Shown here one piece after another: positions 9,756 through 58,190 of a DNA stretch of 64,000 bases. Numbering within the stretch: the stretch's first letter is position 1; each line of letters starts with the position of its first letter. The translations under genes were made by a program, and so were the position numbers. This DNA is from Prorocentrum cordatum (lineage: Eukaryota), in the NCBI GenBank assembly GCA_963575745.1, contig CAUYUJ010000003.1:434001-498000 (forward strand). Direction: 5' to 3'. The notes below the pieces were generated by a model that worked only from the letters and a program-made list of their open reading frames with translations, did not search any database and was not told the DNA's origin.

Positions 9756-11379
9756 AGAAGGCCACCAGCACGGAGAGGATCATTACGGCCAGCCCGGTCG
9801 CTCCGAGGTTCAAGTCAAGGGGCTGGCCGACCATCCAGCCTGCCGCCACTGAGGGGGGAGCGTTGAGCTACAGCCTCAGCCATGTAAGAGGGGGCAGGAG
9901 AGAGGCAGGATGGAGGGCGGCGAGGTGGACTTGGGGAGGATGGAGGGTGGAGGGTTGACCGACCGTCCAGCCTGCCAGCACCGAAAATGGCATCACGAAC
10001 ATCGCTATCTGCGTGCTCGACCCAACAGCGATGGCGATCGCGGCGCCCATCTTCGAGTTGTAGGCCATCCGCACTGCGGAGGCGTGCTCGCAGGCGTTGC
10101 CCACTATCGGCAACAAAATGACGCCGACGAACGACCGCGGAACACGCCACGCAATGACCATGCCATCAATAGAATCGACCATAACTTCAGACAGAGCGGC
10201 TACAGCCACCGTGCTGACCAGCAACAGACCCAAAGCCCAGGGGACACTCAATACGCCATCCTCAACCTCTGGGATGTCAGCGTCGTCGGCCAGCAGAACG
10301 CCGGATGCCAGCGGCATTGATGCGGAGGAGACCTTCGAAGTCGGAGCCTCGGCATCAGCTTCACAATTCAAGTCCTTCTGGTCATCGTCGCTGTCATCCT
10401 CGAAAATCTCTACGTGGGTGTGCAACTGAAACACCAAGTACGCAACATAGCCTACGCTGACAAACATAGCGCTCACGCGTGAGATCTCCAAAGAAGCTCC
10501 TTCTGGTTTGCCGAAGGAGAAAACCGTTGGGAGTGAGAAAGACATCACCCCCACCAGCAGCATCGTAATGTTGATCAGTGCGGCGGAGTCTGAGAATTTC
10601 TGCACTGGCTTCGCCAGCCCGCCTGCGAAGAACGCCATGCCGAGGACAAGAAGGAGGTTCGACAAGATGGACCCAAGGAGGCTGCTCTTAACGATGTCGA
10701 GGAGACCGTTCTTTATGGCATTGATGGTTATGATCATCTCTACAGCATTGCCAAACGTAGCGTTGAGGAGCCCGCCAACAGTTTGATTCAGGTTCTCTGC
10801 CAGGTGCTCCGTGGCGTCCCCCAGCAGTTTTGCGAGTGGCACCAATGCGAGGAAGCAGAGTACGAACGTCAAGCCTTCAGGCCACCCTTGCAGTTCTCCC
10901 AGAATGCCGAATGGGCTTGCGACGAGCAGCACATTGATCGGGTCGAGAAGCAGGTCCCCGACGATGTGGGCGTCGGTCGCCATGCGGCCATTCTTGATTG
11001 CGGCCGTGTCTCTCTTGATGGTCGGTACCAGCGTCAGCGCCGGAAGAGACCGCCTGCTTTTTGCCGACGGCACAATCGTCGGGAGGCTCTGGTGTCTGTC
11101 CTGCGGCCTGAGCGGCGGAGCCCTGACAGGGTCCGAGTCGGCCTGCCCAAAATCTCCCAAGCTGCTGCCGCTGGTCGGACCGGCCGGTCCTGTCTGAGAC
11201 CGCCGGATCTCGTCGCTCATCTCGGCCACGAGGCTAGGGCCAGGCAACGTCGTCCCGCTCATGCTCTCCGTGCTCACGGCAACTCCGCCGGTGCCTTTCA
11301 ACAGCGAAATGTGCTCCTCGGTCCCGAGGCTGAGCGCCCCGCCTGACTTGAGCAGCGTCGTCATCGGACGCCGCGGCAC
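9756..11379 (-). CDS. CAX: Vacuolar-type Ca2+(cation)/H+ exchanger, CAX family. Exon ~11379(ATG 11364)-9972, intron 9971-9840, exon 9839-~9756; last TM exon not found
   Basis: Alpha-1 repeat GGLLNATFGNAVE, SLLGSILSNLLLVLG, central acidic motif EDDSDDD, alpha-2 repeat GVILLPIVGNACEH...AIAVGSSTQIAMF. The second exon continues GWMVGQPLDLNLG...MILSVLVAF as expected for CAX. Confidence 0.93.
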
Positions 11380-12945
11380 GTTGCAGGTTAGCTACAGGGC
11401 TGGGCTTGTGGAGTCTGGGCCAGAACTGCAGCGAGCCTGGGATGTTGGAGGTACGTAAGCTTGTGTCACGCCGCCACCACCACCAAGACACGGCGAATTT
11501 GTCCATGTCGTGCTGGACGAGCATCAAAGGCTGTGCTCGAACTCCCCTGGTCTTCGGGACGACTGACGAGAAGATGCCTTCCTACTCCTGCTAGCGGACT
11601 GGGCGCGCACGGTGCGGTGGTGTCGTGGTGTGTCGCGGTGACGTGATATTCTGTGCTATCATAACGTAATGGTGTCGTGAAGCTCCATGGTGTTGTTGGG
11701 TGTCGTGGTGAGGGGGGGCCGCGGTGTCGTGGGCTCGAAAAGGCCCTCAAGAGACCTCTCAAAGGTACCCAGCATGACCCCCAGAGGCCCTTAAGAGGAA
11801 CCAAGAGGCCCCTGAGAGGCAGCCCGACAACCCACGCACAGCGGCGGGATGGGTCGAAGGCCACCGGATAGCCACGTTGAAAACATTCACAACTACAGCA
11901 AATACGAGAATGCACGAAATACAAGACGACTGGGACCAGAAGCATAATCTTGCATCAATCAGCAACAGCAAGAGCACGGACACTTCACTTACACGCTTAA
12001 AGCGTAGCGTCACTCGTCTACACGTTGCCATACATGCGAAACCTAGGGACAGCATTGATGGTACGAGTGGCAACGGACTTGACAATATGGGAAACAAACA
12101 TCAGATGCGAAGTACAAGGGCAATGACGGTCCGCCACCATTCAGCAGACTCTGAGCGAAGTGCTCGCATGCCCTCAAGCGTAACCAATAACACACCATAT
12201 ATTGAGAGACCCCGTGCTCCAGATTGCTGCTAGAATTCCCGGGCGCTCCCTGGCACTTCTGGAGCGCCCCGCACTGTGCTTCAAGTGGCCTCGGGAGCGT
12301 GGTTGAGAATCGACACTTCTTAGCGGGCGAACAACAGTACAACAAGCTTTTTCGCCGTCTGGGGCGCTCGTCCTATGGCATGTGGTATTCCCACATGCCA
12401 TCAATTCGTTCTGGGACTCTCTTGGTATCACCGTGGGCTGTCTTGGAGGCCCTGGGGGCTAGCCTCCTCAGATGCCAAAGACATTTGATGACTCAAGAAG
12501 ATGTTTGCATTGACTTAGCTTTCTCGCCTCTTCGGTCTTGAGCGTGTCCAGGGTGGCCCAAGAGGCCCCCAAGATCGCTCTCAGATGGCCCCCAAGAAAA
12601 GACAAAGAGGCCTCCAGGACGGCCCCAAGAGGGGTCCCAGAGCGAGCCGCCGCCAGACTTCAAGAAGCCTCCCCCCAATGCAGACCCAAGATAACCGGAG
12701 ACCCTAATACGTCCTCAACATGCATAACACGGGCCCTGAAGAAGAAAAGGTCCCCAAGAGGTCTACAGGAGGCTCCCATGAAGCCCCCCAAAAGGCCCCT
12801 AAGAGACTCCAAGATGCATACAAGAGGCCTCTGGTCACTGGTCCACGGCCCAGCACGGTGGCAGAATGGGCCGACAGCCGCAAAACCACAATATAAGTAA
12901 GAATGCGACGGGAAACAGGCAGAACAGGACTTGTGACTAACAGCA

Positions 12946-13195: not shown

Positions 13196-16089
13196 TGCTG
13201 GCGTGCACGGTGGGGTGGGAAAGTTATCGGCGATGGCACATGGCTGGTTTGCGGGTTAACCCTTTGCGCGCGTGCTGACGGACACATCATGACTTGGTAG
13301 ACGAGCTAGAACGGAGCTAAATTCAGATGAGGATAAGTCGAGAAGCCTGAGATGCAACGGCTCTGGAGGATGTATCGGGCGTCGCGGCCTTCTCAGAGCG
13401 CCCCGGAACGCTCTGAGAGCGTTCCGGAACGCTCTGGGACCGATGTCCCTTCTCTCGGATCTGGCGTTGCCAAAACACGGGGACACTCGACGTCGCAGTA
13501 AGTCACCAGCGGAGCCCTAGACCCCATCTTCCTGCGCCACGTCTCGAGCCGCATCGATCTGTGAGGGGCTCGGGGGCCGCAGCCTGGCGAAAACGCCCGT
13601 TGCTAGAGAATAGCAGCGCTCGGATATGAGGGTCTAGCCCGCTCTCTGTTGCCGAGGGAACAGCGCGGACTTCGCCCACGCGTGAGCATACGTGCGGGGA
13701 GATGCCGCCCCCCGCGCATGCCCGCGCGACGACGGGCGCTGGCCGTGGGGTGCGCTCGGCCGCGCGAGGGCGGCCAAGACGAAAGGGAGGGATCGTAACG
13801 GGCAGGGTCGGGAAGCGGCTGACATGAGGTGGGAAATTGGAAACTTCGTAGCTGCTGGGAGCACCGTAGCGGCATCACCCGGGATCCGAGCACACGTCGT
13901 CGGCCCAAGTCCGCATGCCAAGCGACCCGCCGTCGGCGAAGCCTCCTGCACAGACCTGGTCGCGTGGCAGAACAGCTGCATGCAGCTAGTTTGGCGCGGA
14001 GCTCGCTACATGCAGGTCGTGTCGCGCCAAACTAGCCATATGCAACCAATCCAGCGCGAAACCATCTGCATCAAGCTAATTTGGCTCGACGCCCACGCCG
14101 CCGTATAGCAAAACAGACAACTCGGCACAAATAGATTTGAATGGAATGGATGCTCGAAATTAGCTCCTGTAGCTGATTCCTTTCAGCTGTTTGCTGCACC
14201 CACCTGGGCGCCGGCCAGCCGCAGGTGGGCACAGCAAATCGCCGGATCACTGCACCGAGCGCGCGCTGCGTACGCTCATGCCCAAGACGGCCCTGGTGGG
14301 ATAAGGGGGGAGGGGAGAAGGGGAGGTGGGAGGAGGGTGCGGGGTTGGGGGGGTGAGGGGGTGAGGGTGAGGGTGAAAGAGAAGGGGGGGCGAGGGGAGA
14401 AACCAACCCTCGTAGGGGGAGAGCGCCGCCGATCTGTGCAGGCCAGCCAAAACACCTGCATGCCGACACGCAGCAATTTTCGTAACCTCCCCTTTCCCCA
14501 TCCCCCTGGACCCGGACGCGCGCGGCACTCACAGTCGGCGGCTTGAACTTTGAATCCCTCGAACCCCTGAGCCTATCCACCCCCCCTGGGCCTACCCCAC
14601 ATCCTCCTCCTCCTCCTCCTCCTCCTCCTCTTCCTCCCGGGCCTACCCCGCTCCAAAAAAACGTTGCCTCTGACCGGCAGGTGCGGCTTGGCGGCGGACC
14701 GCCGCGGGCGCTCGCGCCAGCCCGCTGCGCCCCCGCTGCGACGGTGGGGAATGGTTATGGCAGGTTCGCGTCGTGCCGACTTCGGCGTTGGTTCCTGACA
14801 CCGCAGGGATTGTTCAAACTTGAACGATCAACCGATTCCGAAACGTCAGATCGTTCAGCATCGACCGGTTCTGGGTCCCTGGCGGCGTTCAACGTTGAAC
14901 GAATGCGGCGGGGCCGCCGCCGGTCGACACGACGCTAACCTACCGTATGCACAACCATCGCCTGGGCGGCCCATGCCCTGGGACCCCAAGGGGGCGGCGC
15001 GCACAGGGGGTAGGGGGAGGGGGGGAAGGCTTCTGAGGAGGCCGCTTTTCAGAAGGCGCCAGCCCTGAACCTATAGATGAGGCCCGCGCCTCCTAAGAAG
15101 CAGGGGTGCTTCTAAGAAGCCCTCCCCCTACCCCTACCCCCCATCCCCGCGTCGCTGACAGGTCCGACTGGAAGGAGGATCACGAAGTTTGCCGGCCGGT
15201 CGGGCGAGTGACATGGGAAACCTGGCCAGCATGGGGACGGAGATCTCCACCATCTTGAGACAGGGCGACAGCTCGCTGGCTCGTCGCGTCTTGAGGCCCT
15301 TGAGGCGCTTTATCGGGCAGCCTCGAGCCCTCTTGTTGGGGCCTCTTCAGGCCATCTTGGAGTCCCTTCGGGCCGCGCGACGCTATTTGGGAATGTCTGG
15401 AGGCAGTTTGTGGATGTCTAGGGGCTGTATTGCCGACCTTGGGAAGTACTTGGGCCGTCTTGGGCTTCTTGGAGGCTGCCGTGGGCCTTTGGGTTCTTTT
15501 TGAAGCCTCTATAACGCCCTTCGGACCCTTCAAGCAAGCACCTTCAACCCAAAACTTACGAGTGTCAGATCAGTTGAAAAATACTCGGAAAAAGGCTTCG
15601 AAGAGTTTAATATCTCGGATGGCCACCGAGGCGCCCTGGGGGCGCCTGGGCGTTTTCCCATGGGCTGATGAGGCAATAGGAGGCAGGGCCCAGGGGCCGT
15701 CCAGATGCGATGCTGGGGCTCATATTGCGATCTTGGGACGTCTTGAGACCGACTTGGAGGCCGTGTGTAGTCCTGGGTTTCTTGGGGACTCGGGTGGGCA
15801 TGCTGGGCACGTCAGGAAGTTTTTGCGGCCCGTCTGTGGACAACTTTGAGCTGGAATTCGGCGATCGCCAAGGATCCATTTACGCTCATGCATGTCTGAC
15901 GATGTTCATCCCTCGGAGGCCCCCTTATAATGTCACCTTACAGCAGTAAGGGACCACGTGGGGTAACTTTGGTGCCAGGACCTGATGAAGCCCCTTGAGG
16001 AGGAGGATGAGGAGGAGGAGGAGCAAAAGGAGGACGAGGAGGAGAGGAGGGAGGAGGAGGAGGAGGACGACGATGGGGGATTTGTTTCA

Positions 16090-17725
16090 CGCTTGACCTC
16101 TGCCTGACCCCCAAGAATGGGGACCACCTCTCCTTACAGCACAATCCAGGGGGGGGGAGAAACTGTACATACTTCTCCCTCCTGATCTGCTGTGGGTGTC
16201 GGCTCTGGATGAAATAGTCCCAGGCCGTAAGACCAGCACCAGCTTTCTTTCTGGTGCATTCCTCACCCAGCTTCTTGACTCGGCCTCCAGTGCTGTAAAA
16301 AACCACATCGCCGGCAAATACAGAGGAAGGAGCCGCCTGTGCAGTCGACCACCGCACACAGGTGGCCATGGTGTTCCAAAAGGCTCGGGCAGAGTCTGGG
16401 CGGCACAAGACAAGGGCCAGGAACTGGGCGCGTATGACCTCTTCTCCCCCGCAGGCAAGATCCACGCTGCCAATATTCACCTGTCCAAGCCCACTCGTGG
16501 GGCGACTGCGACGCCTGAGGGGCCTTGCCAGGTTTGATGACTTGGACGCTGGAAAGATCAAGCCTCGGCCAACGAGGCACAAGTCTGGCCGCCAACAGTA
16601 TGACAGCCATCGGGACACGGATCTCGCGCTCAACGCGAAACAGCAAACACATCGGTGGGGGGGGGGCCTGAGGGTGGACTCCCGCGCCCTGCTTAGCAGC
16701 GCGGTCGGCGTGGGAGTTGCCAGCTCTCCTACAGGCCTCCTGAACAGAAATTCTATCTTCGTCTAAAGCCTTGTGCGCGGCAACTTTGACCAGGCCCTGA
16801 AGGAAAGGGCCCGCCCCAGAGAACGCTTCCAGCACCGAGCCAGCATTGGCCCGATGCCCCCCGAGGCGGCCCCGAGGGCCCCTGCCGCAAACCGAAACAA
16901 CCGAAGCACAATCTCAGAAACTTACAGGAGGCGGCACATAGTGCCCTGGATGCGCAGAGGCCCCAGTCAGAAAGCTGACAAGATCAACCGAATTGCTGTC
17001 GCGCGCTTCTCGAGCCCAGGTAATCAACTCCATCCCAACCAAATCGACCCTTTCATCCTGACATACAGCGCACTCCCATAGTCTATGAAACAGAGAACCC
17101 ACCTTAGCATGCCAGAGAGGGCACGGCGGGCTGACTTGGTAGCCATACCTTAGCGCACGAGAGTTGGCCCATAAGGCATTACACGAGAGAGCTCGCAGAG
17201 AACCCTTCTCCCAGTCCCAGAGTTTTTCGAGCGGAGCCCAGCCGTGACGACATCGACGCAGAGACGATTCGATCCACCAAGGTCGGGGGGGGGGATCCGA
17301 TCGGGGGCCAACTCCACGGCAGGCTCGCCTAAGCCTTGCGCAGGCACGGGTGGAGGCGCACCTGCGCCGCAGAAAAGAACGCCATCCACCAGCTTGCCGT
17401 ACGCCGCTCTCTCAAGCTGGAGAAGAACAGCTTGGTGGAACAGCACTTTGAAGAGGGCTGGCGAAAGCAAAGTACGCGAGAGCTCGCGACCCATGTCATC
17501 TACGAGAACCACCATGTGCTTCATATCCCAGCCGATCCGTCTGAGACTCCTAAACATGGCGCGCATGGGTCCCGAAACTCTCCTCCTGGTGAAAGCTTTC
17601 TGTCGACTCGAAACGCACACCTTCCCAGGAAGCTCGAATAGTGGCCGAACCCAGTGTCCCAGGAAAAGCGTTGGCCCTGAGAAGCCACAGCTCTTTCACA
17701 TACAGAATAATCGAGGCCACTGAGC
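16090..17725 (-). mobile_element. Degenerate 3' fragment of a non-LTR retrotransposon with RNase H domain
   Basis: LVKVAAH...GNSHADRAAKQGA matches the RNase H C-terminal signature (VKAH...GNxxADxxAK); Cys-rich tail (CRRCG); post-RT-like segment GPMRAMFRSLRRIGW; frameshifted. Confidence 0.75.
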
Positions 17726-18833
17726 CGCGCCAGACTGGATCGCCCTCTAGCAAAGACAGCACTGTTAGAGATAAGGACGACGAGGGAGGAATAGGAGGAG
17801 GAGGAGGAGGAGGAGGAGGAGGAGGAGGAGGAGGAGGAAGAGGAGGCAAGGTACCCTGAAAGAGACGAGAAGAGGGCAAGCGGGCACGAGGCGAGACGAG
17901 GGCAATAGTGACGTCCGCCGCGCCCGTCGCGAGCTCTCTCGCCTATGGAGTAGTGCTTTGGGAGCTTGGCTCGCTGCGGACATCGCCGCAGGGCGTGAGC
18001 TCGAGTCAGCGTGATCCTTCATTCTGTTGTAGAGGTGAAACGCTAACGTGATGAGCTCGGTTGTCGAGCGCAGCGAAAGCGGATTCTGATTCTCGGGCGG
18101 GTACGCAGCTGCAGGCCCAAGGCCCCAGGCTGCGAGCGTCGAGCGAAGGGGGGGTGGACCAGGGGTCCAGAAGAGGCTCGAAAGCGAGGGGCAGATGAGG
18201 TCGTGGGGGAAAGAATCCGGTTGGTTCCCGCACCCAAAAACGCATAGTTTTGGGGCGAGCGCGTGCATGCGGCCAGTGGTAGTCAATCCACCGCTGAGTG
18301 TCTTAAGTGTGGCCCAGCGCCAGCTGGGGCGCACCGTTCTGGGTGATTCAGTGAGTGCAAACCAGCGCTTTTGCAGCTCTCCTGGCGTCGCCGGCGCCTG
18401 GGGCCCCCAGGCCGAGATGCGTTTGAGCAAGGTGACTGTAAACGGCGAATCGAATGCTTGCTCTGCAGGCTTGCGTGCAAATGTGCGCTAGCATGTCGGG
18501 CGACACGGCGGGGCAGCCGCTGCGGCCTCGCGCAGTTCGAGGCAGGCGGCGTGCAAATCAGCTGAGACGGCTTGGCGGATGAATGGCTTCTGAGGCTGGG
18601 CACCGATGAGGAAGCGATAATACTGCGCAATGGGCTGCTGGGGCGATCAGAAGGCGGGCGACCACGTGCCAGCCCACCAGCGGGGCGCGTTCAGAAGGGG
18701 GGGGTCCTCGCGAGAAAATGTCGGCGAGGCGATCGGCACACGGCCCCTGGTCTCCCGCGAGAGTGGCGGCGGCAGAGCGAGCAGCGGCAGCCGCAGATGT
18801 GACCTGAGCGAACTGCGGGACAGGTGGCGGGCT

Positions 18834-20139
18834 TCACCACGCCATGGCAATGAAATCAACCTTGCGCAGAGAATTCGGCGGCAGGCTGAGCATCTCATGG
18901 AAGACGTGCTGTTCACGGCGGGCGATCAACGGCTGAAGCGGACAGAACTGAGCGACATCGCTGAGCGTGGACAGGATTGTGGTATTACAGAGGCGAACTG
19001 TGGCGTCACTGCCACCCTGCACTAACTGTGGAAGATTCCCCCTTTGCCACAATTTCTGCCCCGGCGCGAGCCACTGCGAAGCCAGCGGGGCCTCCAGACC
19101 GAGGAACGTGCCGAGATATTTGGCACGGCCCGCAACCGAGAAACCACCCCAAGGAGGACCGAGCTCGGCCAGGAGGGATTTGGCTTGGGCAGTGGTATCT
19201 GGGGTCGCCGCGGCCCAGAGCGGAACGATGCGACATTTGCGAGGCTTGAGCGAGAGGAGCGCTAGCTCCTCGGCTGCGGAAAAAGGCTCAGATGCGCTGC
19301 GCAGCGTGTCGAAAGAGTACGTCAGCAGCCCGATGTCGTCCGCGCGCAAGCCGAGGTAGCCAGCGCCCAGATTCGGCGTGCCGTCGTGGTGCTCCACAAA
19401 CGTGGCGAGGTGGCGGATGAGCGGGTCCATGGCGATGGCCCAGGCCGAGCCCGAAGCAGGACAGGCCTGCGCAATTCCAGACTCTATGGCGAACATGGCG
19501 TGCCTGATGCCGTCGATTTTGACGTAGCTGTTCGGGGCAAAGCACAGCGCGCGGAAGAGGTTCATGAGGCCAGACGGGGCCCCGAAGTGCCCCAGCGCGG
19601 CGAAGAGCCAAACCCGCCCCAAGGACGGGAAGGCGGCAGAGAAGCCGAAGCTCGCGAAAACGGGCTTGGATTGAAGAGCTTCAGGGAGTATTCCTGCTCG
19701 CCGCATCTCAGAACCGAAGCGAACAATGTGATTGGTGAAGTCGCGCTTCTGCGCGAAGCCCCGTTGCGCCATGTGGGTGCGCTCTGCCGCAGCGCCCTTG
19801 ATGAGGTAGTTGGCTGCCCCAGCGATGGCATTTATGTAGTTTTTTTAGCGAGGGCGGTCGGGTATCATCTGAGGCTCGGTCTGTCGCGAATTCGCCAACA
19901 GAGTTGTCGCCCTTCGGCAGGAAGGCGAAGTCGGAATCATTCAAGTCGCGGGTGTAGTACTGGCCAGAGCAGAGGAAGCAGGACACGTCCTCCAGGAAGG
20001 TAAGCGAGGCATCGTGCGCGAGCCAAGCGGAGGACGGCAAGCAGCCGGGGCCTGGTGCTGACGGCGAAGCGCGCTGCAGGAAGGCCTTTATCTGCGACTT
20101 CGCGGGGGCCCCAATGTCCAGGGTCTCGCCCTTCGGCAT
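18834..20139 (-). pseudogene. Reverse transcriptase domain of the LINE (frameshifted)
   Basis: ORFs 19708-20139 and 18834-19772 together carry the conserved RT motifs; catalytic motif reads RADD. Confidence 0.88.
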
Positions 20140-20231
20140 GCGCGTGCAGATGTAATTGGTGAGCTTGGTCTCGTCGACAGGCTCGGCGGCGAAGATGGGC
20201 TGCCAGCGGTCGCGCAGGGCGCGACCGTCGA

Positions 20232-20287
<56 letters not shown>

Positions 20288-20450
20288 ATCTCGGGGCCGT
20301 CTGGGCCCGTGACCTCGGTTCCCTGCAGGGCGAGACGGCGCTTCCAGGGGGCCCATGGGGGGGCCCCGCGCCGGGCGGTCCGAAAGACCTCACGGAGCTT
20401 CTCAGGAACCAGGGCGCCAGCGCGCCCCAGAGGGCGCCGCGCGGCTTGCT

Positions 20451-20809
<359 letters not shown>

Positions 20810-21051
20810 GCCGTGCCTCGAAGGCGCGGTTGAGCTGCGAAGCGAGCGCGGCGAGGACAGCAGGCACGTTGATCGCAATGATGCCGTCAGAGATGTTGGC
20901 GAACTTGGCGCCGAGCTCGGTCGCGGAGGCAACCCCGCGGGCCAGTTGAAGGTCTCGACGCCGAACGGCTCGAGAGACGGAGCGCATCCTGTAGACCCTG
21001 CCAGCCAGGAAGCCTGTCTTGTTGAAATCCCCAGTGGTACGGCGGACCCAA

Positions 21052-22070
21052 TCATCGCGAACCAGCTGGGCGGCCTCCGCCAAGAGGCGCTCGCGGGTGT
21101 GCCATCGGCTGTCCAACGAGACGCATTCGAAGCTGGTGGCTTCCAGGAGCTGCTGGAGGTAGATGGCGCAATTCGGATCGCGAAAGATAAAAAGGGTGGA
21201 TGGCCTGCTCGCCCTTCGGGGTGCGCGGCTTGATGCCGATCGAGAAAATGATGATAGCGTGGTCGCTAAGGCGATTGTCCGAGAACAACGCGGCGTCGCG
21301 CACCGCGTTCGCGTGGATCGAGAGCTCCTGGGCGGCGCGCGAGGGCAGGCTGATGAAGATGCGGTCGATGGTCGCGGCTGCGAAGTCCGAGCGGTTGAAG
21401 CGCGCGGGGGGCCCGGTCTCAATTTCGAGCGCGGAGTGGAGGAGGGGCTTCAAGAAGGGCTGCTGCTGGCGCGTGCTGTTGCCCAGCGCCAGCCTGGCGC
21501 GCTGCGGCTGCGGCTGCAGGAAGCTTTGCGGCGGGCGGCTAGCTAAGTTGATGCCCCCGATCGCGATGGGGGTGCGCATGCGGTAGTTAGTTTCCGCCCA
21601 GGTGCGGCGCAGCTTCCAAGCCCGGTGGAACTCGCGGCGGTCCGCGTCGGCGATCTCGTGATTATGCGCGCTAATAAGGACCAGCGTGGCGTGCGCGACG
21701 GCGCGCGCGACGGCCGCCAGCTGGACTCCTGGTCTTCATGGGCGAATAGCGGGAGCTGGTTCGGCTGCAGCTGCTCGGGCTCCATCGGGGTGAACCAGGG
21801 GATGCGCGCGGCGACGCCGCCCGCGGCGTTCGGGCCGTCGCCGTCGACGCGCGGGGGCTCAGAGAAGAAGAGCTTGTAGGGGCACGTCTGCGCGTCGACC
21901 CAGATGCGGGGCAGGGCCTCCGGTCCGTGGTCTTCTTGCAGCGTGGTGACGCACTTGCGCTTCATGTATTTCACTAGGGCGGCCTGCTTGCGACGGCGGC
22001 GCTTGCTCTTGTAGCGCGCGAGGGCTCTGGCGTTCCACGTGGCGATAGTGGTCGGCCCGGCGGCGTCGTC
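21052..22070 (-). pseudogene. APE/EEP endonuclease domain of the LINE
   Basis: TWNARAL, LQEDH, GGINL (GDFN-like), IDRIF and SDH motifs occur in the correct order. Confidence 0.85.
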
Positions 22071-23930
22071 TACCCTCCGCGGAGCCCAATGGTGGTTGGG
22101 ATCGTCACGTGGCCGACTCCGTGTCAGCAAAGAAGAGCGCGCGGAAGGAAGTGATGACGTTGCCGCGATCGCTGCGCTGGAACTGCGGGTGGTCAGCGGC
22201 CTGGTCGCTCCACTGGATAATGGGCGGATCGGCATGACCTCTGACGACGATTTTGACAATGGGCTTGGAGTCAGCGAGTATTTCGCCTTTGTTCCTGAGC
22301 GCCCCTCATCTCTTTCCAGGGCATCGTTGTTGCATAAACTGGGGTAGTTTCTCTGTTTGAACTTCGGTGCGGGTCTGCTTGGGAGGCTTGTCGGGGTTGA
22401 GGTATATGTATCAGTGCTGTCCAGCGATGTCTGTCGATGAAAACCTTCCCCGCTTCCCAGCGGCATCCTGGAGGGCGCGCGATAAGGCAGGGGCGCGAGG
22501 CACTGCAACAGCATTATCTCCTTTGACTTGCAGAATGAAGCGGCGAGCAGGTGCGCCACCGAGGAGCTCGACGCGGCTTGACTGTAGGTTGGCAGCGGCA
22601 ATCCACCCTTGGAAGTCGTTGGGCAGCTAATCTGGCGCGATGAGGCGCTAGCTACTGATCGCGAAGAGCGCCGGGTCGGGCTGTCGGCCCCGCTCGGCAA
22701 GGCGGTTGCGGTCAATGATCGGCGCCTGGGCTTCGGCGAGGGCGAGCGCGTCGCGCATCTGGTCGATCTGTTGCCACGTGCGTTGATGCTCAGCAGCTTG
22801 GCGGCCTTGCTCTCTGCGAGCGCGGGCCACTTCGTCGTGTAGAGCGTCAACTCTTCGCTCAATAGCGATAATTTGCTGCTGCGCGAGACGTCTGAAGCTT
22901 TCGCGAGATTCGGCGAGTAGCTGGTCGGCTTGGGCTTGAAAACGAGTAGCGGCTGTGGCGACTTGACGTTGCATAAGTTCACGAAGGGCGACGTCAAGAT
23001 CTTCAGGGATCCAAGAAAGCGGTGCGTTTCGCTCAGGCGGGGTAGGTAGCTGCTCCAGAGGAGGCGCGGCGTGTCCATCAACTGGCGCGGCTGCGTAGCG
23101 GCTGCGGCGGCAACTTCTTGAGATGGGAATGTAGGAGCCAGCTCGGTGTCGCGCGCAAGCTGTGAGCCGAAGTTGCAGTTGGCCCAGGGGTCGGCGGCGC
23201 CCAGGAGCGGGTCAGCAGGCGGAAGATCATGCGGTGGCATATCTTCATATTCCATGGCCACGGGGGTGGCTTCGGCAGCGGCACGGCCGCCAGATCTGGC
23301 TGAGGATCGCGCTGACGTGGGCGGCGGTCTCGCGGCGCTTCGACCAGAAGCGCGTGAAGGAGCACCTGCGTGGCCTTGGCTGCTGAAGCCCGTGTAACCG
23401 AGCTGTCCGATATGTTTTCGAGCTGCACGTCGCCCATCTCGGCGAGGCTCTTCACGGCGGGGTTGGCGGTTGTCACCACGTTCGCGGCGGCGAGGCTCGT
23501 CGAGGCGATGTTGGCGGCCTTCGCGCCTGCTGCGAGACGTGGACCCGTTCGTTGCGGATTGGCTTCGGTCAAATGAGGCAGCCGACACGATGTCGAAGTA
23601 GCTGGTCGTAGTGGGAGCGGGAGCTGGAAGCCAAGCACCTGCAGAGATTCTTGTCCAGAACGTGGCGGTTGTGGCACAGGCCCAGGAGGAGGTAGCTGAG
23701 CGCGGCAATTTGGCTTGCGAGCCAGTGTAAGGAAGATCTCCGTGCAGCACGGTGCGGCGAAAGCCAACAGCTTGCCCAACGAGGGCGCGAATATGAAGGG
23801 CAGCCGCTAGCCCGTGATTGTGGCAGCAAGGAAAGGCGGCCGCTGGCCTGAGGTTGTGGCGGCAGACGAGTGGATGCTGGATCGCTCGGGAGCCTACCCC
23901 GCTGAGGCAACGAATGAAACGCCATTTGGC

Positions 23931-23952
23931 CTTGAACCAAAATGGCTACGGA
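23931..23952 (-). other. Genomic copy of the dinoflagellate spliced leader (DinoSL) at the LINE 5' end
   Basis: Reverse complement TCCGTAGCCATTTTGGTTCAAG is a 21/22 match to DCCGTAGCCATTTTGGCTCAAG. Confidence 0.93.
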
Positions 23953-25781
23953 AGAGGAGGAGGAGGAGGATCACGAGGAAGAGGGATGTTTGAGAGCCGT
24001 CTCAAGTGTTCTGGGGACTCTGCTGTGGCAGTGTGGTGCCGGCTCGGAGGCCCCTTTTCAACGGAGCCATCTTGGGACTCTCTTGGATACGCCCTGGTCA
24101 GAATAATTGCGCATGTCGTACCTGGTTAATCATATGGTTTAATCGATACATCAGTCAGGTGTCTATACGTTCATAATTACACACGCGCGCACCTGTAGAC
24201 GTATACGTGCTCAACTTTACCGTATTTGTTTGATATGCAGGGCGGGAGCGAACCTCTTCCGCAGAAAGCTAAGCGGGACGCGCACAGCTTTAACTAGCAG
24301 AGAAAAAAGCGGAAGAAGGCGGGGCCTCACGCGGCCAGGAGAGGGCGAAGCCCGGGGAGCAGGCATTGCCGAAGTGGACGTGCAGGAAAAGGTACACCTT
24401 GGACAGGAGCCTGGTGGTGAAGTCCTGGGAGGAGAAAGCCGGTGGTGGAGCCGTCAGCGGCGTTTCGAGAACACCAGCCACACAAACTGCGGGAGAGGAC
24501 GAGCCACTTCATCAGGTCGACGTCCGAGAGGAAGAAGAGCACCACAGAGTTGGAGTGCAACGTTGTGCCACCAAAGTGATGTCAGGAGTACCAGCCGTGG
24601 TAGTCACATGTTCAACCTAACTTTTCCCTGCATAATGCTCACATGTGAAAGCAAATCATATACATACATGATATCAGACGGGGGCCACCGACGCGGACAC
24701 TTAGAAAGAGAGAGAGAGAGGAACACCACAATAACGAAAAGAGAGGGGGAGAGAGAAAGACAGAGAGGGAGAGAGAAAGAGAAAGAGGGGAGTACATACC
24801 GACAATGCTTTAGACGATCTTCGTCTCGGGTGGGGGGAGCCTGGGCCCTTCTATTGGCCAGCGCGCATGCCCTCGCACCACTTCGTGCGTGGTTCGTTAA
24901 TCAGTCAGTCAGGGGGGAAACAGCTATCTTTGGAGGGCAACCGTGGCGCCACTTGGGAGCGTCCCGCGGCGTCTGGGCGTCCTCCCCCGGGTCGCTGGGC
25001 CACCTGGCGGTTCTAGGCGCTCTCGCGGGCCGCCCGAGCTGATCGCGAGGAGCCCAGTTGGAGCGACCAGGCCCAGAAGACCCAGGGCCCGGGGAACGCC
25101 CAGAGGGGTCGCCCGCAGCAATTCCATGTTTGTGGCTGGTGCGAAAGAAACTGAGAAGTCAATTGAGGGACGTGCGGAACTCATGCGCGCGGGCATCTCC
25201 ACCCCCCACTTCTCCACCGGCTGCAGCCATGGGTGCTAGGTGCACATGCCGCAACTTCTCTATCGCAGGTGTGCCTGCGCTCGCTGCCGGGGAATCAGGC
25301 TTCTCGTTGCCCGCGTTATTTTCGGCGGGGCCCGATAACTTCGACTGCCTGTGGACCCTCCGCACCTGGACCTGCCTTTCCCAAATCTGCAGTTTCCCAG
25401 GATTCTGGGTGTCAGCACGTTGTGGAGATGGGAAAATCCACCAGGCCCGCCCCCCTGGAATGTATAATATTGTTCTGCTAGGAAGCTAGAATACTTCAGT
25501 GCGGGGGGGCAACGACTTGCCATTGGGCGGTTCAGACGAATATTGCAATTAGCTGGGCATGCTGATATGAATGCGGCTGTTGCCAACGTCGCCTTGCATG
25601 ATGGAGTACCGCCGGTACCACAATGACGGGCGCCTTGTAATCACTGGCATCCCTAACAGCACAACGACTACCACAGGCACACAGGCAGGTATCAAGAGCA
25701 GCCCAAAGTGCAAAACCCACATTTGCATCGTGATCAACATCGAACTTGCGCCCATTCTAGTGAGCACCCTCAAGGATAAGC

Positions 25782-39124: not shown

Positions 39125-39719
39125 CTGTCGGCAAGCCCAGGGTGCCCAGATTACCCAAGGTCGCGCCCTCGCGCCCCGCGATGTGCGAGCATCCTCGCGC
39201 TCTCGAGTCGCCGATGCGCGCGCGGGCGCGGCTGGGGCACATTCAGCCCTGTGGCGGGGGGGGGCGCGGCGGAGGGGCGCAGGGGGCGCTCGGCCCCGAG
39301 AGGGGGGAGGATATCACGAGCGGCGAGAGGAGGAGAAGGAGGCGGCAAGAGCAGGACGAGCCAAGGCAATTCCCGCACAAACGGAGCCAACACGAAACCA
39401 GCGACCAGAAACGAGGAGGAGGAGAAGGAGAAGAAGAGGAGACAAACTCGGGCGCCCGCCCTAAACCCGAGGATAAACTGGTACGTCCAAAAACAAACGG
39501 TAAATCCTGCCTACCGCAGGCGCCGGCCAGGGCGGACAAATCGTGGCCTCCCTTGCGAGAGCAGCAGCTAGCGGACACCACTGGGAGGAGGAGGAGGAGG
39601 AGGAGGAGGAGGAGGAGGAGGAGGAGGAGGAGGAGGAGGAGGAGGAGGAGGAGGAGGAGGAGGAGGAGGAGGAGGAGGAAAGGAGGAGGACGAGCGAAGA
39701 GTGGGAGAACCGTATGATA

Positions 39720-42700
39720 CAAACATGGCCCGAATGTGTATCATAGCGAAGCGCGTGGTTGCCCAAAGAAAGAAGCCACCGTCATCAACAGGACGTGTGT
39801 CCTGCGAACGTGGCCGAAATTATGTGCAGAAAACGGGCTGTTGCTAGCAGTGCAAACACCGACTAATACACCCGAATCTGATCTCAAAACGAGCACCGCA
39901 GTTCCCCTGCGCGGCCGCCGAATCGGGCCCCAGCCGCGAGAACGCGAGGAGAGGAAAACAGCACCAGGTGCCCTAGCAGGCGACATAACAATTACACGAA
40001 CTGCAAGGAGGGGGAGAGGGACACAGAGAGAAACCGACAAACCGACACAAAAACACCCAAAAACACCCCAGGACCCGACAGACCCCGAGACCCACCCCAC
40101 CCCGGAGAAGGAGGAGAGGTCAATCTTGGCGTCGGCGTTTGCGCACTGCGCTGAGCAAAGACATGGCTTTGTCATGACCCCGGGCCCCTTCGCGGACGCA
40201 GCCGCGGAAAAGGCCACACCGGGGGCCAGTCCCAAGCGAATTGCTGGCAGTATGGGTGCGGTACAACGCATGCACGCTCAGGGCTCGGAGCGCCGAGGCA
40301 ACGGCACCGCCAACCGGAGGCTCGTCGATGCGCACTTGACGCGAAGCCGAAGCAATGAGGAAGACATCGCCGAGGGCCACGGCCGAGTCAGGGCGTTCCA
40401 GTCGAAACTGCTGCCGACACAGCTCATGATAGAGCGGGCATTTAGCGCAATGCTGGAGCGAATCGTCGGCGCGTGCGCAGCCGAGCACGCATTTACCACG
40501 CCGCAGGAACCTCCGTGCCGTCATCCAGCCGTTCAGGTTGGATCGCAATGCCGCGGCCAACAGCCGGGGCGGCGCCAGCGCCTCGATGCTGCCGAGGGCC
40601 CTTAATAGCCTCTGGCATCGGCGCCCCGGCAACGCAACGAGCCGCCAATGGTCTTGTCAAGCTGTCGCCGAAGGCCCGTTCGGCGGCAGCGGCGCAGGTC
40701 GGCTGCGTTGCCCGAAGGGCGCGCGCCTGCTACCCTTCCCTGCGGGGCTCCTCGGCGGACGGGTGGTGCAGCAATCTCGCGGAATCCTCCGATGCTGTGA
40801 ACGAGAGCACGGCGGCCTCCAATAATAATAAAAATGACAACGCGGCCCAAGCCCGGCGGGCGCCCAACCGCCGCGCGCCGTCAAGGTCGCGCATCGTCTC
40901 CCGGTGGGCCGTCGCGCGCGGCAGCCCGCGAAGTCCACCGCTGCTGTCGGCCTCGCGCGAAGTCACCCGCACCTTCGCGACGGTGGCAATGGTCTGGGCG
41001 CATGGGAAATTCCGGGGGAATCCGAATGTCGCGAGGGCCCGCAGCGCGTCGCCGGGCATCCAATCACACGGGCCCGGGAAGAGCTTTCGCAAAACACGTT
41101 TTTCCGACTGCCGTGAAACCGTCGGGGAGGGGGTCAGGCTGCGCGACGAAGGCGGTGACTGAAGCGACGAACGCGCGGTGGACCTCGATGGCGTGCATCA
41201 TGCCGGCCCCAAGCTGCCCGCGCACCGCCGCCCGGTCTTCCATCTTCTTGAAGGGGGGCTCCCAAGATTTGAGCCCGCGGCCAGGGCCAACGTAGACGCC
41301 AATACACTTGGCAACATCTGAAATTTCCAGCGCCCCCCAGAGCGGAACACCCCGCCGAATATGTCCTCGGACTTTTTCGTGGGAGAGCTGGCCGAACGGA
41401 ACAATAACTGTCTTGTGAACGTTGAGTCCCAGGCCAGACGCGCGAGCACACTCAGAGAAAACGCGTTCCAGCAGGCCGAGGCGCTGCATAGGGGCGGGTC
41501 GACGAACGCGGCGTCGTCGGCATGGGCGCGCAACGCGCCCGGCGCGACGGCCCGGGCCAGCCTGCGCAGCAACAGGTCCGCCGCGACAGCGAACGGCAGC
41601 CCGCCCCCGACGCCATGTTGGGCAGGAAGAACAACCAACTCGCGTTGAAGTCGTCGGCGCACCGCCCCATGAGGTCGGCTCCGTCGCCCCCCAGGAGAGC
41701 CTGGAAGACGCTCGAACAGGATCGTGGCAGACAGCCGCACGGTGACGCGCCAGGCCTGGAACGGGAACCCGTCGGGGCCAGGCGAAGAGATGCTGGACTG
41801 CCCAACGGCCGTGCGAACGCGAGAACGACGAAGCCTGAACCTGGGCGCGTCGAGCGGCGCTGAGTCCGACAGCGGGCGCGAGTCCTCGTCTTCGGCCACC
41901 CACTGGCGGAGGAGGTGATGGTCGACGCCCTTGGCCTTGAAGGAGGTGAACGCAGGGCGCTGGCCTTCGAGCCCAGATGCGTCGCTGCTTCTCCGCCGGG
42001 CAGCTCCGCGGCCGAGATGCCGCCGGCGCGACCGGGGGCCGGTCGATAAATGAGACGAGCGTCCCATTGACGGGCCTGGCCCGAACGAGCGCCATCCAAA
42101 CTCGCGGTCGGCGCGGGGCCGCCCCGACTCCTCGATGGCATGCACCCAGGCAAGTTGCACTGCGTGGAGCCGTGATCCGCGAAGCCGCTGCGCCACGTCC
42201 GCTTCGATGGCGCGCGGGTTGCCCGCCGCCCCCCGGTGGGCGGGCAGCCCTCGAAGCGGGCAGATCTCGTAGAGGCGCCCAGCCTCCGCCGCGCGAATGA
42301 ACTTCATCGCGCGCCCCAGCCGATCCTCCGCGCGGGCGGCGGGCGCAGGGGCAGAGCGCTCCGCCTCGATCCTGAGGGCGACCAGGCGCAGCGCGGCTGT
42401 GAGCGATCGCGGCCGCTCCGGCGCCAAGGCATCCGGCCAATCTTTGCAGGCCTCTTGGCACTCCAGCGCCGCTCTGCGGAGGAACGCCGGGTCGGCCAGG
42501 GCAAGGGTCGGGGGGGGCCGACATTGGTCGCCGCCGTCGCGCCCGGCGAAAACAAGACCGCGCGTCGGCGCGACGGGTCGCGCCGCCGCTCCAGGGCAGC
42601 GCATCGGACGCGCCTGCCCAATCGGTCCGCTAAGTGGTAATTGGCGTGAATCCGGTCGAGACGAGACCTCTCCGCAGCCGAAGCGAGGGCGGGCTCGCCT

Positions 42701-43790: not shown

Positions 43791-44629
43791 ACTAAGCGGC
43801 GGCGCTGTCGCCGCGATGCGGTTCGTGAGCATGAGGCCACTGTCACCGCGCACGCACGGGTAGGATGAGCAGGGGGTGGAGGAGATAAAAGGAGGGGGGA
43901 GGGGCGTCGACGTCGCTGGCCCCGACGTCGTCGTCGAAGTGGACGTCGACGCCCCCTTCTGTTATTCCGCCAACGCCGATGTTATCGTTCTTCCGTCGAC
44001 GTCCACAACGACGACGACGTCGGGGCAAACGACGTCGGCGCCGACGTCGGGGCAAACGACGGCAGCGCGACCGTTCAAGGTTGACCGCCGCCCAGGATCC
44101 AGAATCGGCCCGCGGGGTGCCAGAAACCAACGCTGTCGTCGCGCCGCCGCCGTCGTCGGCGATCCTCGTCGTCCGTCATCTGCGTCCTCGTCGCTGCTTG
44201 TTCCGCAGCTGGCCCCATGGTCAAGCTGCCCGCCCATTGCCAAGCAACCCCTTTGTGCCCTCGGGGAAGGGACCTGTGGGTGCGCCGCGGCTGGGCCATG
44301 CCTCTCGGGCCCCCGCCGCCCGCCTCCGCCGCCGAGGGAGAGGCTTCAGGAGAGGAGGTGATGACGGACGCGGAGGACGGCGAGGAGATGCATTGCGCGG
44401 GCGCTGCATTTCACGGCGCCATGGAGCGCATCATCGGGCCCGAGACGACGCAGGCAATCATGGCGTCTGGTGGCCCGCCTCGCGAGCGGGGGAGCGGAGA
44501 GGGAGGGGGCGGGTGTGCCTTCTTGCTTGCTCTGATCCGCTTGCCCTCCTCCTTCCCCGTCGCACCCTCCCCCGCCCGCCCGCCACTGGCCCCCGCCCTG
44601 CCTCGGAGGTCGTTGGAGAGGCTCGCCGC

Positions 44630-44985
44630 GACGCATCGGCAGGGCATTGACGAGCGGTCGACGTCGGCCGATCGTCGGCGATGCATCGGAGATGCGTCCG
44701 TTCGGCGATGGAGGGGGACCCCGCGACGCATCGGCGGGGCATCGATGAGCGGTCGACGTCGGCCGATCGTCGGCGATGCATCGGAGATGCGTCCGTTCGG
44801 CGATGGAGGGGGACCCCGCGACGCATCGGCGGGGCATCGATGAGCGGTCGACGTCGGCCGATCGTCGGCGATGCATCGGAGATGCGTCCGTTCGGCGATG
44901 GAGGGGGACCCCGCGACGCATCGGCGGGGCATCGATGAGCGGTCGACGTCGGCCGATCGTCGGCGATGCATCGGAGATGCGTCGA
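44630..44985. repeat. 95-bp tandem repeat (~3.7 copies) rich in CG palindromes
   Basis: Unit gacgcatcggcggggcatcgatgagcggtcgacgtcggccgatcg... repeats with period 95. Confidence 0.92.
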
Positions 44986-57886: not shown

Positions 57887-58190
57887 CGTCACCGTCACCG
57901 TCACCGTCACCGTCACCGTCACCGTCGCCACCGTCGTCGTCGTCTATCGCGGGGCGCGCTCTGGCCTGAATTTCTGGAGGGGGATCCAGCCGTGGCGACG
58001 AGACGCCCAAAAGCCGTCGTCATCCCCTCGTCGTCGCCCTCCCGTCGTCGTCGTCGTCGCCCTGGGGGTGGCGGAGGGGTGGGGGAGTTCGAGTATGATG
58101 CGTGGTGCGTGAGTGCATGCGTGTGTGGCGCGCGGTGCGCGGTGTGCATTGGAGGAGGGGGAGTCCTCCACCTCCCCCTCCTCCTCTCTC
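57684..58190 (+). repeat. Direct-repeat copy of 52950-53490 flanking the transposase
   Basis: (GTC)n followed by tctatcgcggggcgcgctctggcctgaatttctggagggggatccag...gagttcgagtatgatgcgtggtg...gagtcctccacctcccc in both copies. Confidence 0.9.

Follow-up and report, generated by a model that had tools for sequence, protein, structure and literature searches.

How does a copy of the spliced leader that dinoflagellates use (DinoSL) come to stand, as DNA, at the head of a LINE? The question is raised by a locus in the window, which is the whole stretch of 64,000 nucleotides of Prorocentrum cordatum DNA that was analysed. The element in question, here called LINE A, lies on the minus strand at 17785..23952 and extends over ~6.17 kb from the leader copy to a terminal (TCC)n. 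The explanation favored here, and regarded as probable, is that LINE A was copied from a LINE RNA that carried a trans-spliced leader. The copying would have run to the 5' end of this RNA and into a (GGA)n/(TCC)n repeat, and the copy would have decayed since.

The leader copy occupies 23931..23952 of the minus strand. Read from 23952 to 23931, the sequence is TCCGTAGCCATTTTGGTTCAAG and matches the DinoSL consensus, DCCGTAGCCATTTTGGCTCAAG in the accessible text of PMC7245778 and PMC5585692, at 21 of 22 bases. The single difference is a C-to-T change at leader position 17, and the TTTT core is intact. When the window was scanned with the leader 21-mer at up to 3 mismatches, this was the sole site found, with 1 mismatch. 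Shuffled sequence gave a mean of 0.02 matches at the same threshold, with a match in 2 of 100 shuffles. The 21/22 match reported in the first-pass annotation was confirmed when the sequence was re-read.

Directly abutting the leader is a microsatellite at 23953..23984, which reads (TCC)n on the element's strand (minus). On the plus strand, it is made up of (GGA)7 at 23950-23970 and then a GGAAGAGGA-type array up to 23984. With (TCC)n immediately upstream and LINE domains downstream, the leader copy sits precisely at the junction of microsatellite flank and LINE body, just where the first-pass annotation had placed the start of the element. DinoSL-tagged retrocopies are defined in part by a leader that marks the precise 5' end of the retroposed unit, as in LINE A. 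They are also defined by a relic, truncated at an internal AG, behind a full leader, and this is absent from the window copy. Behind 23931..23952 no relic leader rises above chance, and the best other leader-like scores in the 5'UTR (14-16) are within the shuffle range. Since the window copy has no canonical relic, by itself it does not demonstrate repeated cycles.

The bases that follow the AG of the leader are GCCAAATGGCG (23920..23930, minus), as the first-pass annotation gave them. Lying directly 3' of the leader, they correspond, minus one base, to the leader core GCCATTTTGGC in reverse complement, and can pair with the leader over 9 bp with a bulge. Aligned with the reverse-complemented leader, this region scores 16, a value reached by 0.18% of 18,282 null window 16-mers. 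The energy of the resulting hairpin is ordinary, as 10% of null windows reach the same value. No mechanism was found for the inverted match of GCCAAATGGCG to the leader.

Behind the leader, the 5'UTR of LINE A spans 23256..23930 (minus), or 675 nt with the ATG at 23255 (MEYEDM) taken as the start of ORF1. It is 3-5x longer than the 5'UTRs of the relatives described below and contains a 36-nt repeat in 1.9 copies at 23795-23864. The ORF1 remnant follows at 22100..23255 (minus), where the end coordinate is approximate. It has a frame change and 3 stops, the latter within the ORF1 frame at 23211..22318. Residues 45-277 of the ORF1 of one relative, L004, align to 23001..22318 (tblastn, E 1.7e-10), and by eye the middle of the remnant looks like a coiled coil.

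ORF2 is recognized by three domains. The remnant of an APE-type endonuclease is located at 21163..22052 (minus) in two frames. A profile made from the endonuclease regions of seven relatives matches 22052..21909 (E 1.6e-8, profile positions 18-65) and 21552..21163 (E 3.3e-10, profile positions 171-302), and the middle third is not detected. ORF2 residues 254-346 of a second relative, L010, align to 21426..21169. The reverse transcriptase (RT) domain lies at 18849..20223 (minus), also in two frames, where L004 ORF2 aligns to 19844..18849 (tblastn, E 1.8e-35) and to 20223..19726 (E 5.6e-7). Against Pfam RVT_1, the window RT reaches 21.7 bits (E 1.8e-4), below the 29.6-bit cut-off; it has 8 protein homologues, of which 7 carry PF00078. 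At the C-terminal end of ORF2 is a Cys/His motif, CVFGCGNQPDSFPHDLICP (18173..18355, minus), matched at 18355..18173 by residues 1084-1144 of L004 ORF2 (E 0.001) and 1139-1205 of L010 ORF2 (E 4e-4).

The ORF2 pieces are spread over at least three frames. Two microsatellites lie inside ORF2 within 20236..20807, (CT)28 at 20236-20292 and (GA)177 at 20459-20807, and are taken to be later expansions. At the 3' end, the ORF2 frame continues into (TCC)20 at 17846..17785 (minus; (GGA) x 20.7), oriented like the 5' flank. Self-comparison of the window revealed no terminal repeats for LINE A, and no second DNA-level copy of the element is found within the 64 kb. LINE A possesses the non-LTR RT, the endonuclease N-terminal to the RT, the ORF1 upstream of ORF2, and the lack of terminal repeats that characterize APE-type LINEs, but not the intact reading frames of an active copy. 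It is full-length in structure and dead in coding terms. The description of the LINE as complete in the first-pass annotation holds for its structure and fails for its coding sequence, given the stops in ORF1, the frame changes in ORF2, and the (GA)177 insert.

The sequence directly after the (TCC)20 of LINE A is also repeat-derived. It extends over ~1.8 kb of the minus strand (15997-17784), the last part being a (CTC)23-type array at 15997-16067. On visual inspection, this sequence resembles a second LINE tail, with a Cys/His (zinc-finger) motif and an end similar to RNase H. No Pfam match was obtained for 15997-17784, nor do the 2 proteins homologous to it (58% and 69% identity) carry a Pfam domain. 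In the DNA sequencing run X1, a 238-nt contig is identical to 17520-17757.

A second, very degraded LINE remnant is present on the minus strand, with an RT at 40390-41489 and a Cys/His motif at 39584-39694 (L004 ORF2, E 1.7e-11 and 7.8e-5). The frames of LINE A have no match to this remnant at ~41 kb, and no leader copy is found near it. A (TCC)37 array lies ~700 nt downstream of the remnant on the same strand. The window also contains a single open frame of 507 aa on the strand of LINE A (9871-11391, minus), with two Na_Ca_ex domains (Pfam E 1e-33). It is the sole clear host gene among the 150 of 196 frames of at least 140 aa that were scanned, up to position 57966. A GC-rich tandem repeat with a 95-nt unit (3.8 copies, 98% alike) is located at 44626-44983.

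(TCC)n in the same orientation directly abuts both ends of LINE A. Arrays in that orientation cover just 487 of the 64,000 window bases, so two direct abutments are not a matter of chance, and (GGA)n arrays as a class are common in the window, with 16 per orientation. Because the repeat abuts the two ends, both insertion borders are fixed, and the leader is the first sequence after the 5' border. The 3' (TCC)20 is either the tail of the element or the remaining half of the microsatellite that was the target. For the LINE A family, (TCC)n would be a target or a tail. There is no similarity above shuffles between the two flanks, and consequently no target-site duplication is definable beyond the repeat itself. 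Beside the other (TCC)n arrays of the window, no fragments of the 3' end of LINE A are found. At least one contig of run X1 joins (GGA)n to position 22444, with a short side of 20 letters; it faintly resembles a 5'-truncated copy in the same type of repeat.

A comparison for the leader comes from environmental contigs. These were searched with a 4-sequence RT alignment, and 15 loci with 27-35% identity to the window RT were obtained. The GC content of these relatives is 48-53% vs ~60% in the window, and they belong to other organisms. No locus was found in viral contigs searched with the window RT. Metagenome contigs searched with the 800-aa frame that extends from the leader to the endonuclease yielded 63 pattern matches, 0 of them confirmed.

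The 15 loci were scanned on both strands with the leader 21-mer. Matches with up to 2 mismatches are present in 3 of the 15, all in the orientation of the RT and upstream of it. On the strand opposite the RT, no locus has a match with up to 3 mismatches, and the sole hit there, in L002, has 5. L004 carries the leader at 63-83 and L010 at 105-125, each with 0 mismatches (21/21). Both are intact LINEs with ORF1, endonuclease, RT, and Cys/His motif, and in both the leader is found 130-210 nt before ORF1. With 46.1 and 45.1 bits, respectively, their ORF2 products clear the cut-off of Pfam RVT_1, and L010 covers the whole Pfam Exo_endo_phos profile at 22.9 bits, just below the cut-off of 24.5. The closest solved structures to L004 ORF2 are the R2 and LINE-1 ORF2 proteins. 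In L015, leaders are located at 54-74 (2 mismatches) and 78-98 (1 mismatch).

The sequence behind these leaders contains further leader material. In L010, a canonical 15-nt relic, CCATTTTGGCTCAAG, immediately follows the leader and is the trace of an old leader that was re-spliced at its internal AG. In L004, the leader is followed by GCCATTTGGCTC, which was noted by eye and left unscored and is possibly a worn relic. In L015, the leader is present in full twice within the region 1-560, with a third relic besides. This locus is 5'-truncated, with ORF2 residue 515 at nt 547, and, though truncated and presumably non-autonomous, it seems to have cycled several times. A fourth locus, L008, has a 9-nt leader tail, TGGCTCAAG, at 24-32, with ORF1 ~200 nt farther on and the contig edge 24 nt away. 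The remaining 11 of the 15 loci begin inside the 5'UTR, ORF1, or ORF2 and, as they start inside the element, are uninformative on the leader either way. All four assessable 5' ends of the relatives carry leader sequence, three of them clearly. Since a perfect outer leader with further copies behind it is found in lineages that are far apart, the leader is renewed by trans-splicing and not merely inherited. The stacked leaders of the relatives indicate repeated rounds of transcription, trans-splicing, and retroposition.

The relatives also have simple repeats at their borders. Their 3' ends consist of GGACTTG and then TA-rich repeats (L004 5495-5522, L007 2610-2696, L009 5190-5264, L013 3815-3870). 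(TA)n lies directly upstream of the leader in L004 (1-60) and in L015, the latter with an (AT)11 tract. With TA-rich 3' ends and (TA)n 5' flanks in the relatives, different lineages go with different repeats, and the lineage of the relatives is tied to (TA)n as LINE A is to (TCC)n.

Copies closer to LINE A are found in DNA sequencing runs. The best of three DNA runs, X1, shares 0.18 of sampled words with the window. Among the matches listed, its contigs cover 16108-24600, including the 5'UTR, at 82-99% likeness, most of them at 82-95%. Over 23100-23707, within the 5'UTR, the contigs are several and differ from one another (again among the matches listed). Many differing contigs over the element mean that LINE A, with its 5'UTR included, is in a multi-copy family in the X1 organism. 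Upstream of the leader, at 24012-24600, X1 contigs are 82-95% alike, and their summed depth is above that of the LINE body among the matches listed. This region is likewise repetitive and seems to represent a different family of repeats; the 2 frames of at least 140 aa that overlap it have no Pfam match. In another run, X3, from another organism, at least 6 short contigs over window positions 23929-23970 contain (TCC)n and the leader and then, at 23920-23931, continue with sequence unlike LINE A. The X3 contigs suggest that other leader-capped RNAs have also been inserted behind (TCC)n.

Several other origins can be considered for a leader in this position. The leader may be an inherited fossil of an ancestor that was trans-spliced once. 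It would now be an ordinary DNA-encoded part of the 5'UTR, used with an internal or TTT(T/G) promoter and left unrenewed. LINE A, with a single leader and no relic, would agree with such a history, as would the proposal of Song et al. 2017, in the accessible text of PMC5585692, that a DNA-encoded leader offers a core promoter in its TTT(T/G). However, perfect 21/21 leaders occur in lineages with just 27-35% RT identity, and more leader copies stand behind the outer leader of L010 and L015, which is a pattern of renewal. The 1/22 mismatch in LINE A fits post-insertion decay of so degraded a copy, and an inherited fossil is unlikely. It is very unlikely that LINE A is a chimeric retrocopy, in which the 675 nt behind the leader would come from another capped mRNA or from a source flank by template switching or 5' transduction. 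LINE-1 chimeras with other RNAs are known (accessible text of PMC13174262), and the 5'UTR is far longer than in the relatives, where it measures 130-210 nt. Nonetheless, the X1 contigs over 23100-23707 differ and have a depth like that of the adjacent ORF1, which makes this region part of the multi-copy family (among the matches listed). Moreover, no Pfam family is found in the 5'UTR frames, and no internal relic marks an older 5' end.

A near-complete leader sequence is also what an SL RNA gene would contain, either intact or split by a site-specific LINE, and this is the sole point in favor of such a gene at the locus. The first-pass annotation had named a GT donor and an Sm site after the AG as the marks of this case, and neither is there. 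The AG is followed by GC and not GT, whereas the SL RNA gene reads ...CAAG-GTACAC (accessible text of PMC12584245). Neither end of the element retains any part of an intron or Sm site; (TCC)n lies upstream, and on the 3' side (TCC)20 gives way to unrelated sequence. There is no Rfam match in 23000-25000, and a single site in 64 kb is not a tandem array. With no GT donor and no gene remainder, an SL RNA gene or an SL-gene-specific LINE is refuted for practical purposes, its probability being minute. Chance resemblance has nothing in its favor: with up to 3 mismatches allowed, 0.02 matches are expected, and the site found has just 1 mismatch. The leader is, furthermore, at the element border, and the relatives share this feature, which leaves chance a negligible probability.

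The origin favored for LINE A, i.e., reverse transcription of a trans-spliced LINE RNA to its 5' end, had been put forward in the first-pass annotation. It gains support from the border position of the leader, the LINE body behind it, and the leader-headed distant relatives. A member of the family would be transcribed from a start upstream of an acceptor site, and host trans-splicing would add the leader to the LINE transcript, as it does to other nuclear mRNAs. The LINE's own endonuclease would nick a (GGA)n/(TCC)n repeat. The LINE RT would then copy the RNA to its capped 5' end by target-primed reverse transcription, and the leader would become the first 22 bases of the new copy. Later decay would account for the one change in the leader, the stops and frame changes in both ORFs, and the growth of microsatellites in ORF2.

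In this sequence of events, the promoter used would have been located upstream of the acceptor and outside the copied RNA. The source transcript could have come from read-through or from the promoter motif of an older leader copy. In L015, a newer leader and 2-3 extra bases stand in front of the old leader, which indicates transcripts entering from upstream DNA. The acceptors traced in the relatives are the internal GTAG in L010 and a site just upstream of the old leader in L015. The first-pass annotation had also suggested that the terminal AG of the inserted leader could serve as the next acceptor; such reuse would leave no trace in DNA. The (TCC)n before the CCGTAG of the leader resembles a polypyrimidine tract with an AG, which is offered as an idea and not a finding.

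These points can be combined, tentatively, into one wider account. The LINE lineage may be without a promoter of its own, may depend on the host, through trans-splicing, to have its RNA defined and capped, and may home into simple repeats. On insertion in sense orientation, the (TCC)n would supply the polypyrimidine tract before the internal GTAG of the leader, so that read-through transcripts are re-spliced and further cycles become possible, and the same machinery would make leader-tagged retrogenes. This combination is doubtful as a whole, and it is held with much less confidence than the origin of LINE A from a trans-spliced RNA.

DinoSL-relic retrocopies of host genes were reportedly described by Slamovits and Keeling in 2008 under the term "mRNA recycling". 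Such copies in dinoflagellates are also reported in the accessible text of PMC5585692, PMC7245778 (Stephens et al. 2020), and PMC12014239. Like them, LINE A has a DNA-encoded leader at its 5' border, and in the relatives a full leader is followed by CCATTTTGGCTCAAG. Unlike them, the retroposed RNA is the mRNA of the retrotransposon itself, and the 3' end of LINE A is (TCC)n and not poly(A). In their accessible text, the papers on dinoflagellate retrocopies mention LINEs or copia elements just as those from which the reverse transcriptase is presumed to come. The GO term "RNA-dependent DNA replication" was found by Song et al. to be enriched among leader-tagged genes, and leader-headed LINEs are not described in the accessible text (PMC5585692). 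A full-text literature search, subscription papers and supplements aside, returned no description of leader-headed LINEs in the accessible text, which included PMC7245778, PMC12014239, PMC11453091, PMC5585692, PMC3942190, PMC7789003, PMC12584245, and PMC5890265. The leader-headed LINE extends the known DinoSL retrocopy phenomenon to the mRNA of a retrotransposon.

Other LINEs share single features with LINE A. Like L1Tc and ingi of trypanosomatids, it is an APE-type LINE in a trans-splicing host. L1Tc transcripts start at +1 from the internal Pr77 promoter and are unspliced (accessible text of PMC1874656 and PMC8190864). In contrast to L1Tc, with its internal promoter, LINE A and its relatives carry the host leader at the 5' end. 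SLACS, CZAR, and CRE of trypanosomatids insert inside SL RNA genes, and the gene resumes on the far side. They too are LINEs next to spliced-leader sequence, but at LINE A no remainder of an SL gene is present and the flanks are microsatellite. Microsatellite-specific LINEs, which include Waldo, Mino, Kibi, and Koshi, were reportedly described by Kojima and Fujiwara in 2004. LINE A resembles them in the same-orientation simple repeat at both ends and differs from them in its repeat unit (TCC) and host group. As the repeat at both ends is seen for the LINE A copy and the microsatellite-specific class rests on many independent copies, target specificity would here be drawn from one clear case and weak hints. 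Another dinoflagellate LINE, SymbioLINE-Dnmt of Symbiodinium (de Mendoza et al. 2018), has conserved UTRs and no poly(A) tail according to the accessible text of PMC5890265, the main text of which contains the term "spliced leader" 0 times. A DNMT ORF sets it apart from LINE A, which has none.

LINE A is old and dead, and its value is that of a documented, well-delimited case in which the same repeat marks both borders. A LINE family whose copies start with the leader would have a machinery that copies leader-capped RNA to the 5' end. Trypanosomatid LINEs, in contrast, avoid trans-splicing through an internal promoter. Thousands of dinoflagellate gene copies are leader-tagged, and the reverse transcriptase responsible is stated to be unknown in the accessible text of Song et al. 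2017 (PMC5585692). Under the wider account given above, a lineage that copies leader-capped RNA to the very 5' end would be the maker of these retrogenes. The simple repeat at both ends of LINE A is an insertion signature that can be searched for around leader-tagged retrogenes. If the wider account is true, these retrogenes should share the microsatellite insertion signature of the LINE, and the X3 contigs with (TCC)n and the leader are one hint that they may.
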